Of a stretch of 54,865 nt of DNA, positions 17,089 through 19,719 are shown piece after piece. The DNA is from Prochloron sp. SulCav_FS08_3_32_3330. GTDB taxonomy: Bacteria > Cyanobacteriota > Cyanobacteriia > Cyanobacteriales > DYNF01. Every line of letters begins with the position of its first letter. The stretch's first letter is position 1. The notes beneath the pieces were generated by a model that saw only the letters and a program-made list of their open reading frames with translations, had not been told where the DNA came from and ran no database searches. The DNA is taken from contig DYNF01000010.1 in NCBI GenBank assembly GCA_020721205.1, positions 1 to 54,865 on the forward strand. Reading direction: 5' to 3'. The position numbers and the translations under genes are program-made.

Positions 17089-19719
17089 ATGACTACCACC
17101 GAATATACAAGTTATACTTCAGCTTCCGCCGAAATTAATACAGGGGTAATACGTCTTAAACCTCAACAATTTATTCACATTTTAGATAATAATACCGGGG
17201 TGACACGCCTTGAAGTGGGACCTCAAACGATTACGTTAGGGGATGCGGAAAGGCTTGTTTTACAACCTACTCAGATGATTATTATACCCCCACGTCACTA
17301 CGGTATTATTGCTAATCCGGTTCTGCGATCTGAGGATAATCAGCCGATCGCTGATCAATATGGGCAAATTCGTTTAAGCTATGGAGATGAGGAAATTCGT
17401 TTTGCTCAAGAGCCTTTTCCTCTGTATCCGGGTGAAGAATTGAAAGGAAAAGTCACAAAACTTCAAGTAGTTGAAACGAATCAAGCGTTAAGATTAAAAG
17501 CAATTCGAGATTTTTCTGAGGCAATTAATATTAATAATGAAACAGAAATGATTAACCGCATCGCTGGAGATGAATGGTTATTTGAAGGTCCCGGTACTTA
17601 TAATCCGCGCATTGAAGTGGAAATAATGGAAAGTGTGAGTGCTTTGATTATTAAACCTAATCAGGCTTTGCGGTTGATGGCACGGCAAAATTGCGTAGAT
17701 CGTCAAGGTTATCGTCGTAAAGCGGGGGAAGAATGGCTGGTAAGGGAAGAAGGGGCTTATTTACCCGGTGTAGATGAAGAAGTGATAGATGTAATTAATG
17801 CTTATGTACTAACGGAACAAAAAGCTCTACATTTAAAAGCTAAACGCACTTTTACGGATCTTTTTAACCGTCAACGGAAAGCAGGGGATGAATGGTTAGT
17901 AACTTTTGAGGATACGGAGATTCATCTTCCTGACGTTTATGAGGATGTAGTGGGAGAAGTGAGGATTACGACTTTAACCGATCGCCAGTGGTGTGTGGTG
18001 TTAAACCCGATTGATAGTAATGGTAAACCCCAGTTAGGTTTTCGGGAAGTACGTCAAGGCTTAACTTCTTTCTTTTTACATCCGGGGGAATATTTGGAGA
18101 GTGGCATCCGTAATGTGTATGTATTAGGAGAGCAGGAAGCGTTATTATTAAAGGCAAGAGAGACTTTTGCTGAGGTGGTAGATCAGACCAATATCACTCA
18201 TCAACCCGGAGATTTATGGATGATTACAGGACCAAGAGATTATATTCCAAGAGTAGAAGTAGAAGTAATTGAAACGAGAAAAGCTATACCTTTAGATAAA
18301 AATGAAGGTATTTATGTGAGGGATATTCAGAATGGAGAATTAAAGTTAGTGAGTGGACCTCAAGCTTATATGTTAAGTCCTTATGAGGATTTATGGTCAA
18401 AAGAACTACCAAAAGTGGTAGAAGATTTAATTATTCAAAAAATTGATCCTTTTTCCGATCGAGGAGGACAACAATATCGGGATATGACCTATTTAAGAGA
18501 AGCGGAGGCAGTTTCTGCTCCTGAAATACCTACTAAAAGGGATAAAACCAGAGCAGTGGTTTTTCATGTGCCTCAGAATGCGGCGGTACAGATCCACGAT
18601 TATAAAGAGCGTACGGCAAGAACGGTTTTTGGACCTGATTTAGTGATGTTAGGACCTGATGAATCCTTTACGGTGCTAAGTTTATCAGGGGGTAAACCCA
18701 AACAGGCTAATTTAATTAAATCTTTAGCTTTATTATTAGGTCCTGATTTTATGACGGATATTTTCACCGTAGAAACTTCGGATCATGCGCGTTTACAGTT
18801 ACAATTATCTTATAATTGGTATTTTGATATAGATAAAAATGATGAAAAAACAGCATTAAAACTCTTTCAAGTACCGGATTTTGTGGGAGATGCCTGTAAA
18901 GCGATCGCATCGAGAGTAAGGGGGGCAGTAGCCTCACAAAAGTTTGATGAATTTCACCGTAATTCTGCCAAAATTATTCGTCATGCGGTTTTTGGTATAG
19001 ATGATGAGGGTAAAACTCGTAATGAATTTCGTTTTAATGCGAATAATTTAGTTATTACCAATATTGATATTCAATCCGTTGAACCAGTGGATGAAGAAAC
19101 TCTTAAAAGCCTTCAAAAATCCGTACAAATTGCCATTCAAATTACCACCGATGCTCAAGAAGCCGCCGCTCGTCATGATGCTGAACGCATTGAACAAGAA
19201 GCGAAAGCCCGTTTAGAGCGTCAAGTCATTGTGGATCAGGGAGCGGCAGAAGAACAGAAAAAACATCTTTTAGAATTACAAGCTCAGAATGCGGCGATTA
19301 AATCCTCCGGTCAGGCGATCGCTGAAGCAAAAGCTAAAGCAGAAGCCTCACAAATCGAAGGACAATTAGCCGTACAATTAGCTCAACAGGATGCTGAGGC
19401 TAAACAGATTCGTGCCGAGTCAGAATTGGCATTATTATGCGCTCGTCAAGAGGCAGAATTAGCTCATAAACAAGCTTTAGTTAACCTCGAAATTGAACAA
19501 GCTCAGAAAATGGCAGAAATTACGACGAAGGAATATGAGGCAAAAGTAGCCGCTTTAGGTAGTGAAACCATACAGGCGATCGCCCAAGCGGGACCGGAGT
19601 TACAGGCGCGTTTATTACAGGGATTAGGTATTCAAACCATGTTAATAACGGATGGTAACACTCCCATTAATTTATTTAGTACAGCACAGGGTTTAATTCA
19701 ATCTCAAATAAAAGATTAA
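17089..19719 (+). CDS. mvp: Major vault protein (MVP) homologue, full length and eukaryote-like
   Basis: 876 aa. Tandem MVP repeat domains of about 55 aa ([11 protein letters not shown]..., [32 protein letters not shown]..., [32 protein letters not shown]..., [23 protein letters not shown]). Shoulder region has [22 protein letters not shown]. C-terminal Ala/Glu/Gln-rich cap-helix coiled coil ([24 protein letters not shown]...). From memory these motifs are near-identical to metazoan MVP. Confidence 0.85.
   Translation: [876 protein letters not shown]

Follow-up and report, generated by a model that had tools for sequence, protein, structure and literature searches.

The function of vaults has been debated from the 1980s onward. 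If real, a vault in a bacterium would allow that function to be studied in a simpler system. The locus described here raises the question of whether a cyanobacterium carries a genuine, full-length major vault protein (MVP) of the eukaryotic kind, and of what such a protein would build. It lies in a stretch of 54,865 nucleotides (the window, meaning the whole of the DNA that was analyzed) from contig DYNF01000010.1 of Prochloron sp. SulCav_FS08_3_32_3330. We interpret the gene at 17089..19719 as encoding a true MVP orthologue; it would be a long-resident, stand-alone gene whose product self-assembles into an MVP-only, vault-like cage. The probability of this explanation as a whole is put at roughly 0.75.

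Identity and domain layout of the protein

The open reading frame at 17089..19719 (forward strand) has an ATG start, is intact, and encodes 876 amino acids plus a stop; JGI predicts exactly the same gene on this metagenome contig. All five vault models in Pfam match the predicted protein far above their gathering cut-offs, among them Vault over four stretches (E 2.4e-63), Vault_2 over two, and Vault_3 and Vault_4. In a phmmer search of the PDB, the rat, human, and rabbit MVP structures are matched over their full length with E values of about 1e-285, and rat MVP residues 6-849 align with residues 19-870 of the query in one collinear stretch (E 1.7e-286, 956 bits). Identity to rat MVP is 54% across 833 aligned positions (MAFFT alignment), and the only insertions or deletions of at least three residues are 18, 3, 4, 10, and 10 residues long. 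The initial annotation had called the protein a full-length, eukaryote-like MVP and had described two of its motifs as near-identical to those of metazoans; both, a 12-residue motif at residue 160 (rat MVP 140) and a 22-residue motif at residue 595 (rat MVP 564), are in fact identical in rat. Judged from its sequence, 17089..19719 encodes a complete MVP that is a bona fide orthologue of eukaryotic MVP.

The domains follow one another in the eukaryotic order. An N-terminal extension (residues 1-17; 17089..17139, forward strand, as for all the parts that follow) is absent from rat MVP, where the alignment places an 18-residue insertion, and is predicted to be disordered, with pLDDT below 50. In eukaryotic vaults the MVP N-terminus lies at the waist and faces the lumen. 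Vault repeat domains R1-R7 (residues 18-403; 17140..18297) are assigned from the Vault and Vault_2 matches and from alignment of the murine R1-R7 crystal construct 3gf5 to residues 18-403 (E 2e-131); they are all-beta in the AlphaFold2 model, with pLDDT of about 85-94, and give Foldseek TM scores of 0.60-0.62, normalized to target length, against 3gng and 3gf5. Repeat domains R8-R9 (residues 404-550; 18298..18738) are marked by Vault_4 (399-458) and Vault_3 (490-550). Between them, at residues 465-475, lies a 10-residue cyanobacterial insertion relative to rat, in a low-confidence loop (456-478) with pLDDT below 50 at 456-473 and 476-478.

The SPFH-like shoulder domain (residues 551-668; 18739..19092) matches the whole of the MVP_shoulder profile (PF11978, positions 1-118 of 118, E 7e-55) and is followed by a 10-residue deletion relative to rat. 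The cap-helix (residues 669-823; 19093..19557) is modeled as one continuous helix of 155 residues, collinear with rat MVP at about 647-802. The cap-ring and C-terminal tail (residues 824-876; 19558..19716) align with rat 803-849, including a motif that begins with LITDG and runs into a further eight-residue block, and the motif PINLFSTA; the tail is modeled as short helices, then as disordered at 852-876. The monomer model as a whole (mean pLDDT 81.8) consists of a stack of beta repeats, an alpha/beta shoulder, and the single helix 669-823. Its pTM of 0.50, and pLDDT of 52-60 in part of the cap-helix, are to be expected when an elongated chain is modeled in isolation from its partners. The best Foldseek matches, with E values from 3e-84 to 5e-63, are the vault shells of rabbit, human, and rat, and the top 12 are all vault shells; distant matches are flotillin, prohibitin, stomatin, and HflK/C. 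The similarity thus extends well beyond a coiled coil or a generic SPFH domain.

A different identity is implied by the databases, in which many orthologues are named "colicin uptake protein" or "colicin transporter" (NCBI and UniRef), as if the gene encoded a TolA-like envelope protein or a generic band-7 protein. The Ala/Glu/Gln-rich cap-helix does resemble TolA domain II (PMC3762200; bioRxiv 10.1101/872010). This identity is ruled out by the full-length match to MVP, which runs over residues 19-870 and so beyond the helix, and which includes five MVP-specific Pfam models; it retains a negligible share of our probability. A search of NCBIfam returned no family for the protein. The colicin name appears best explained by low-complexity similarity within the coiled coil, and as a widespread NCBI product name for cyanobacterial MVP genes it is misleading.

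Host, distribution, and phylogeny

Few bacterial proteins would be expected to reach 54% identity to an animal MVP, and such a value could point to eukaryotic contamination or a chimeric assembly. The same contig, however, is recovered in both JGI and NCBI records, and it carries PsaD, XisH/XisI, sucrose-phosphate synthase (SPS/SPP), HisB, CobK, and Dus, with cyanobacterial genes, including PsaD, on both flanks of MVP. The host chromosome is low in GC (33%) and unusually AT-rich; the MVP gene is intronless, its GC3 is 0.27, and its codon preferences correlate at 0.91 with those of the remainder of the window, both values falling within the range of housekeeping genes. Orthologues occur in dozens of cyanobacterial genomes, some of them in multi-megabase contigs. 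Because the contig is cyanobacterial and the codon usage matches that of the neighboring genes, contamination is already refuted, and we leave it almost no probability at all. The gene is a genuine, long-resident gene of its cyanobacterial host.

Cyanobacterial MVPs have been described before (Daly et al. 2013, PMC3762200; Sokolskyi 2019, bioRxiv 10.1101/872010), the published homologues being those of Moorena (Lyngbya) producens 3L (F4Y3B4), Oscillatoria acuminata (K9TKX8), and Allocoleopsis (Microcoleus) sp. PCC 7113 (K9WB38). The database comparison put the number of distinct cyanobacterial clusters at 120 or more, the best 120 being 72-95% identical to the window protein (73-95% for the 119 others among them), and 33 species-representative genome loci carry the gene, including two Thiomargarita metagenome-assembled genomes (MAGs). 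The nearest relatives are metagenome proteins (95%, 89%, and 84% identical), and the nearest named one comes from a Xenococcaceae MAG (77%); identity is 74% to the Moorena producens 3L protein and about 74% to that of Allocoleopsis franciscana. Bacterial MVP is therefore not the scattered rarity supposed at the outset: in cyanobacteria it is neither new nor rare and is common among filamentous forms. We count the breadth of these orthologues as a sign that MVP is probably under purifying selection. No MVP copy was found in the plasmid search, and in the phage collection the only matches, 24% identical, come from very large records (462-735 kb) of uncultured phages.

In a neighbor-joining tree with 100 bootstraps, the cyanobacterial and Thiomargarita sequences form a clade with 98% support. 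Backbone values are 2-35%, too low to place the clade among eukaryote-like MVPs. Two proteins considered as possible bacterial outgroups (P0177 and P0267) proved to be intron-containing eukaryotic genes. The horizontal origin proposed in the initial annotation is plausible as far as transfer itself goes; the direction is left unsettled by the tree. That the bacterial clade, which takes in at least one unrelated GC-rich bacterium besides cyanobacteria and Thiomargarita, represents the donor side seems improbable; vaults would then be bacterial in origin.

Predicted assembly and genomic surroundings

Eukaryotic MVP builds the whole vault shell by itself. For the cyanobacterial protein, we propose that about 39 copies would pack side by side through their repeats, shoulder, and cap-helix into a half-vault, and that two such halves would meet at the waist through their N-termini. 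This would give a hollow cage in the cytoplasm, about as large as a vault and lacking TEP1, PARP4, and vault RNA. That cyanobacterial MVP alone builds genuine closed vaults, a minimal prokaryotic vault, is likely, if slightly less so than the explanation as a whole. No experimental report of such a cage was found in the searchable literature, nor any cyanobacterial vault in the PDB; for the Lyngbya orthologue, a fold and docking that would allow a vault to form have been predicted in silico only (Daly et al. 2013, PMC3762200).

Waist, NAD-pocket, and MINT-binding residues were taken from PMC12280208 and mapped onto 120 cyanobacterial sequences. The polar network at the waist, R9/N22/D39 together with R42 (human/rat numbering), is identical in the window protein and invariant in 120/120 cyanobacterial sequences. 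Position 6, which makes a hydrophobic contact between the halves and is Phe in human and Ala in rat (PMC12280208), is Gly, and N40 is replaced by Ala here and by Ala or His among the cyanobacterial sequences.

The Gly at position 6 and the additional disordered 17 residues that would sit at the waist can also be read as signs that the halves do not pair, and that the protein instead forms only one half of a cage, or an SPFH-type dome associated with the membrane, comparable to HflK/C, flotillin, or stomatin. The shoulder is an SPFH domain, SPFH cages are the distant structural neighbors in Foldseek, and eukaryotic vaults have recently been observed bound to membranes (PMC13100048). Against such an arrangement, the invariance of R9/N22/D39/R42 in 120 sequences is hard to explain without pairing of the halves, the protein shows no evident membrane anchor of a transmembrane or amphipathic kind, and all nine repeats are retained, repeats that exist only in closed vaults. 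We regard the open or membrane-bound form as unlikely and favor the closed, two-half cage. Closed MVP-only vaults in cyanobacteria combined with a bacterial origin of vaults would be a little less probable again than that origin taken singly.

Conservation of the shoulder pocket, which binds NAD+/ADP-ribose in human vaults, is partial. The pocket has 13 residues, of which R504, K506, and R511 are basic residues of the keyhole loop. Eight of the 13 (K506, R437, D521, W545, F522, L517, P565, and K573) are identical and show essentially no variation, R504 is replaced by Lys, and the keyhole loop residues R507/P508/H509 read Q/A/N in this copy. R511, an arginine that forms a salt bridge to the diphosphate, is Ile in 120/120 cyanobacterial sequences. 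With the pocket only partly kept, weaker or altered binding of adenine nucleotides is possible. An invariant waist interface alongside the uniform loss of one key arginine of the pocket is a useful result in itself. The site on R3-R4 that binds the PARP4 MINT domain (Q164, R169, Q172, and D214) is conserved in vertebrates only (PMC12280208); the window protein keeps K189 (Lys also in rat), Q192, and D234, with Q164 changed to Ser, and the position of D214, Asp in this copy, is Gly in 91/120 cyanobacterial sequences.

Convergent to MVP, on the reverse strand at 19829..21235, is a gene for a 468-residue protein with an N-terminal HTH_VMAP-M9 domain (from precomputed annotation) and an NB-ARC domain, and without sensor repeats. 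The initial annotation described this neighbor as an NB-ARC/NACHT-class STAND NTPase and drew a parallel with TEP1. The convergent arrangement and the first half of the class name hold. NB-ARC passes its cut-off (40.1 bits against 23.5, E 3.3e-10) and NACHT does not (17.4 bits against 26.7), so by its domain matches the protein is an NB-ARC-class STAND NTPase, not specifically a NACHT one. Its only PDB matches are weak, to the P-loops of plant CC-NBS-LRR/NLR proteins, and it has a weak match in PADLOC (E 2e-4); MVP has none in that defense library.

The two genes lie 110 bp apart, stop to stop, and TEP1 contains a NACHT STAND module (bioRxiv 10.64898/2026.05.01.722283), which might suggest a functional pair analogous to MVP and TEP1. 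Aerosakkonema has a 465-residue homologue of the neighbor 1.5 kb upstream of its own MVP, and on a contig from an unrelated GC-rich bacterium (L039) a CHAT protease gene lies 53 bp upstream of a eukaryote-like MVP; the latter case indicates that conflict-system genes do occur beside bacterial MVPs. The parallel nonetheless fails. Since the genes are convergent they do not form an operon, and the neighbor has no TROVE, vWA, DUF4062/TIR-like, or WD40 domain to set beside its weak structural matches and sub-cut-off NACHT score. Only 3/33 other loci have a relative of the neighbor (jackhmmer) up to 10 kb from MVP, and 1/33 has one within 2 kb; a second member of the neighbor's family is found 33 kb away, also in the window. 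Going by how densely this family populates the flanks, we estimate that about 1.2 close adjacencies would be expected by chance, with two observed (Poisson P about 0.3). In the two closest relatives whose contigs extend far enough around the gene (84% and 78% identical) the adjacency is absent, and transposase, toxin-antitoxin, and other genes lie beside MVP instead. The 3/33 count led us to reject the STAND protein as a conserved partner of MVP, and a functional pair is very improbable.

All-versus-all BLAST clustering of open reading frames from the 33 genome loci and the window yielded no conserved neighbor of MVP, the only clusters being MVP, shadow reading frames inside it, generic two-component genes, and synteny specific to Laspinema. 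Among reading frames of at least 100 residues in the 55-kb window, none encodes a TROVE, vWA, PARP, TIR/DUF4062, or WD40 domain, and Rfam at its gathering threshold identified no family in the window and hence no vault RNA nearby. TEP1, PARP4, and vault RNA are also missing from many eukaryotic lineages that bear vaults, so their absence has no bearing on membership of the MVP family. A search of 37 loci (nhmmer and blastn) for conserved flanking noncoding DNA or an analogue of vault RNA gave nothing significant except one 19-nucleotide intergenic match, which was discarded as a dispersed palindromic repeat. MVP is probably a stand-alone, monocistronic gene, and the finding that cyanobacterial MVP loci share neither a conserved partner gene nor a flanking RNA is a useful outcome of the comparison.

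Between the convergent MVP and STAND genes, at 19750..19805, lies a hairpin with a 21-bp stem (-32.4 kcal/mol, z -7.4). Its core is present in 18 copies in the window, with 0 expected; the hairpin is one copy of the dispersed palindromic repeat of this genome and is not specific to MVP. It probably acts as a bidirectional terminator or a REP-like element. A scan for promoters and terminators was uninformative because its counts equaled those in shuffled sequence.

Comparison with known systems

Compared with the published cyanobacterial MVPs, the window copy belongs to the same family and clade and has the same Pfam set. It differs in coming from an uncultured, AT-rich (33% GC) lineage, and nothing functionally distinct was found in it. 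If closed, MVP-only vaults are formed, they would provide a bacterial system for asking what vaults do. Such a system is already offered by cultured, published strains (Allocoleopsis franciscana PCC 7113, Oscillatoria acuminata, and Moorena producens), so the metagenomic copy adds a divergent AT-rich lineage and no new handle.

TEP1 and the neighbor at 19829..21235 are alike in having a STAND-class P-loop NTPase module (bioRxiv 10.64898/2026.05.01.722283). TEP1 combines TROVE, vWA, a DUF4062 TIR-like NADase, NACHT, and WD40, whereas the neighbor is a 468-residue HTH and NB-ARC protein without these.

With the SPFH/band-7 cages (HflK/C, flotillin, prohibitin, stomatin, and erlin), MVP has in common the shoulder and the long helix after it, which together correspond to the SPFH-cage module; these proteins are its only non-MVP structural neighbors (10-18% identity, Foldseek E 1e-6 to 1e-4). 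SPFH cages lack vault repeats and form membrane-anchored half-cages, not closed shells of two halves (PMC13100048).

Relative to eukaryotic MVP (rat Q62667 and human; PDB 4V60, 7PKZ, and 9BW5), the window copy has a bacterial host. It differs in its 17-18-residue N-terminus, the 10-residue insertion between R8 and R9, the 10-residue deletion after the shoulder, the change of R511 to Ile, and the altered R507/P508/H509 of the keyhole loop; TEP1, PARP4, and vault RNA were not detected near it. It agrees with the eukaryotic protein in length class (876 against 861-893 amino acids), in the order of nine repeats, shoulder, cap-helix, and cap-ring, in its 54% identity to rat and the two identical motifs, in R9/N22/D39/R42 at the waist, and in most residues of the NAD pocket.

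The vault protein gene and its host DNA

The major vault protein (MVP) gene lies at 17089..19719 on the + strand, with an ATG start and 876 codons for amino acids, exactly as the initial annotation had placed it; JGI called the gene identically on this metagenome contig (3300000236, TB_FS08_3DRAFT_1000055). The profile search that the annotation had proposed, against the vault-repeat and MVP-shoulder models of Pfam, matched every vault-specific model far over its curated cut-off: Vault in four stretches (E 2.4e-63), Vault_2 in two, Vault_4 at MVP residues 399-458, Vault_3 at 490-550, and MVP_shoulder, the SPFH-like domain, at 551-668 (E 7e-55). 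A phmmer search of all PDB sequences aligned query residues 19-870 to rat MVP 6-849 in a single collinear stretch (E 1.7e-286), with equal scores for human and rabbit MVP, and residues 18-403 to the crystal construct of vault repeats R1-R7. Identity to rat MVP is 54% over 833 columns of a MAFFT alignment, in which the only indels of at least 3 residues measure 18 (at the N-terminus), 3, 4, 10, and 10 residues. Both motifs quoted earlier as near-identical to metazoan MVP occur letter for letter in the rat protein. A partial match, or similarity confined to the coiled coil or SPFH domain, which had been named as grounds for rejection, is excluded by this end-to-end collinear alignment, and the identification as a full-length MVP rather than a distant homolog is right and robust. 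This complete MVP is subject to strong purifying selection.

The gene is located on genuinely cyanobacterial DNA. The same 55-kb window encodes PsaD (38874-39356), XisH/XisI (48431-49212), a sucrose-phosphate synthase (SPS)/phosphatase/kinase cluster, HisB, CobK, Dus, and methionine aminopeptidase. GC3 of the MVP gene is 0.27, its codon preference correlates at 0.91 with that of the remaining window, and both values fall within the range of housekeeping genes (e.g., SPS 0.29, Dus 0.27); its GC content exceeds that of its flanks, as is ordinary for conserved coding sequence in a 33%-GC genome. Contamination or recent transfer was set aside in view of these cyanobacterial genes and the host-like GC3 and codon preference.

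Predicted structure, assembly, and binding sites

An AlphaFold2 model (input alignment of 40 sequences; mean pLDDT 81.8) has an all-beta repeat stack at residues 20-550, followed by an alpha/beta shoulder, one continuous helix at 669-823, and short helices at the C-terminus; its disordered parts are residues 1-17, one loop (456-478), and the tail (852-876). The top 12 Foldseek matches in the PDB are all vault shells (E 3e-84 to 5e-63), including rabbit 9z4w, human 9bw6/9mxv/9bw5, and rat 4hl8/7pkz/4v60; the SPFH cages (flotillin, prohibitin, stomatin, HflK/C, and erlin) are distant matches ranked below them. Global TM-scores are only 0.4-0.5 because the MVP chain is long and flexible, and R1-R7 alone give 0.60-0.62, normalized to target length.

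Eukaryotic MVP builds the vault shell on its own. Residues reported at the half-vault junction are R9, N22, and D39 (human/rat numbering), plus R42 (PMC12280208). When mapped, these proved invariant in 120 of 120 cyanobacterial MVPs. Because the eukaryotic protein alone suffices and the junction residues are invariant, self-assembly into a closed vault-like cage appears the most likely outcome for the window MVP, and we put the probability of a vault-like cage at roughly 70%; a half-cage or a membrane-associated form in place of the closed vault is unlikely.

The shoulder pocket that binds NAD+, ADP, and ADP-ribose in human MVP is partly kept, with eight of 13 residues identical and essentially invariant. 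R504 is replaced by Lys, R511 (one of two diphosphate salt-bridge residues) by Ile in every cyanobacterial sequence (n = 120), and R507/P508/H509 by Q/A/N in the window copy, so that nucleotide binding may be possible but is not assured. The vertebrate PARP4 MINT site is inconsistently kept (D214 is Gly in 91 of the 120), in agreement with the absence of PARP4-like genes near the window MVP.

Gene surroundings

The initial annotation had drawn attention to a convergent STAND NTPase gene (19829-21235; 468 aa), described as NB-ARC/NACHT-class, and hinted at a parallel with TEP1, the eukaryotic vault partner. The NB-ARC assignment holds (40.1 bits against a Pfam cut-off of 23.5), whereas NACHT scores under its cut-off; the N-terminal helix-turn-helix (HTH) is HTH_VMAP-M9 in precomputed annotation, and PDB matches are weak and limited to plant NLR P-loops. 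The protein carries no sensor repeats and, in contrast to TEP1, none of the TROVE, vWA, TIR/DUF4062, and WD40 parts that define it (bioRxiv 10.64898/2026.05.01.722283). A jackhmmer search of all ORFs at 33 independent MVP loci detected relatives in the vicinity of MVP at three of them: L007 (same strand, 1.5 kb upstream), L014 (7.6 kb away), and L015 (9.2 kb away). These results do not support the hinted link. Two close adjacencies were observed where about 1.2 would be expected by chance, by our estimate from family density. A further copy lies 33 kb away inside the window, a 172-aa ORF (52896-53414, +) that shares the N-terminal HTH module of the STAND protein (jackhmmer E 2e-36); probably a paralog that has been truncated or split, it shows that the family is multi-copy in this genome. 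Among the closest relatives with enough contig (MVPs 84% and 78% identical), transposases, a BrnT/BrnA pair, a GerE regulator, and others adjoin MVP, and at one other locus unannotated genes do. The simplest reading is that the STAND gene has no connection with MVP and belongs to the conflict-system NTPases that abound in multicellular cyanobacteria (PMC7159879).

All-versus-all ORF clustering across loci found nothing conserved but MVP itself, no conservation was found in its flanking intergenic DNA, and the window has no Rfam match; cyanobacterial MVP is therefore a stand-alone gene. Directly upstream on the opposite strand are two overlapping small ORFs (144/136 aa and 111 aa; 16021-16747, -) with no match in Pfam, NCBIfam, or PADLOC and not kept beside MVP elsewhere. 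Scattered through the window is a palindromic repeat whose core, GTTGTTGCGCTTTAGCGCC, is matched 18 times with no more than 3 mismatches (0 expected), at 10071-10118, 19754-19801, 31899-32125, 35884-36098, and 54644-54662. Its copies, arranged as inverted pairs or small arrays and seemingly located between called genes, look like a REP/MITE-like element; the one between MVP and the STAND gene forms a 21-bp hairpin (-32.4 kcal/mol, z -7.4), and one exact 14-mer recurs in the Aerosakkonema locus L007 (9066-9079). The window also encodes a putative, unusually repeat-rich cell-wall hydrolase of 1290 aa (10157-14029, -), with ten PG_binding_1 repeats (E 2.4e-141) and a weak chitinase/lysozyme-like match in its C-terminal region; a 2021-aa protein (23757-29822, +), probably secreted or surface-located, consisting mostly of RTX/hemolysin-type calcium-binding repeats, with many partial NCBIfam matches all under cut-off; and a transposon-associated IS605-family OrfB/TnpB with a Cas12f-like TNB domain (1252-2472, -).

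Distribution, ancestry, and known vault proteins

A large protein search with the window MVP returned 2537 proteins (E <= 1e-10). All of the top 120 clusters are full-length, with BLASTP identities of 72-95%, and their named sources include Xenococcaceae, Coleofasciculaceae, Microseira, Symploca, Aerosakkonema, Nostoc, Allocoleopsis, Okeania, Spirulina, Planktothricoides, and Phormidium. They go by "major vault protein" at JGI or "colicin uptake protein" at NCBI; most cyanobacterial MVPs carry the latter NCBI name or "colicin transporter," apparently a misnomer due to a coiled-coil composition resembling that of TolA. Scanning one genome per GTDB species with six peptide patterns from the window MVP returned 33 loci, including Moorena producens 3L, Laspinema, Microcoleus, Tumidithrix, Hormoscilla, and, with MVPs 66-67% identical, two metagenome-assembled genomes (MAGs) of Thiomargarita. 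A contig labeled Actinomycetota MAG69 (JBLNEP010000122.1, L033; 44% GC) carries a 74%-identical cyanobacterial-type MVP; its composition and the identity of the MVP point to a cyanobacterial contig placed in the wrong bin.

HMMER, run exhaustively over 1.84 billion 50%-identity representatives, gave 3696 matches, of which the best is only 53% identical. The library lists no cyanobacterial-type MVP, so the whole clade is probably represented there by a eukaryote-like sequence. The few named representatives are eukaryotes (Anaeramoeba, the sponge Corticium, and the ciliate Platyophrya), and two divergent ones are intron-containing eukaryotic genes. P0139, a eukaryote-like MVP of 874 aa that shares 41-43% identity with the window protein, comes from a bacterial metagenome contig of 60% GC (L039, 3169-6859); a CHAT (caspase-like) protease gene on the same strand ends 53 bp upstream of it and is itself preceded by a PAS/HisKA hybrid kinase. 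A full MVP is here encoded in a second bacterial lineage, beside a conflict-system-type gene.

In a neighbor-joining tree of 62 full-length sequences (100 bootstraps), the cyanobacterial MVPs form one clade (98%), as do cyanobacteria plus Thiomargarita (98%), with very short internal branches; the backbone linking the latter to the eukaryote-like radiation has 2-35% support. The two Thiomargarita (Gammaproteobacteria) MVPs (L023, 10001-12556; L032, 6684-9227) are of cyanobacterial type, 66-68% identical, and fall outside the cyanobacteria-only clade, which suggests gene sharing from a cyanobacterium to a giant sulfur bacterium, or the reverse. The tree fits one acquisition, then spread among cyanobacteria and on to Thiomargarita, with transfer between bacteria and eukaryotes in either direction.

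MVP-like genes in phages were reported in a 2023 preprint. A distant MVP-like protein, 24-25% identical and spanning query residues 346-843, from R7 to the cap helix, is encoded by very large genomes of uncultured phages, 735 kb and 462 kb in size (LR756501.1/LR756503.1, 17332-18840; LR756500.1, 21441-22517); searches turned up no copy in cyanophages or plasmids.

Whether bacteria make vaults, and why, is an attractive general question, which this window renders no more testable than the published cultured strains already do. Literature searches turned up no experimental observation of a cyanobacterial vault, and sequence and Foldseek searches found no such structure in the PDB. MVPs of Lyngbya/Moorena, Oscillatoria acuminata, and Microcoleus PCC 7113 have been described, modeled as vault-competent, and placed near Amoebozoa, with transfer from a eukaryote to a cyanobacterium proposed (Daly et al. 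2013, PMC3762200); a later analysis of bacterial MVPs argued for the opposite direction (Sokolskyi 2019, bioRxiv 10.1101/872010). The cyanobacterial family is thus already known, and the window copy is a further member from an uncultured AT-rich lineage.
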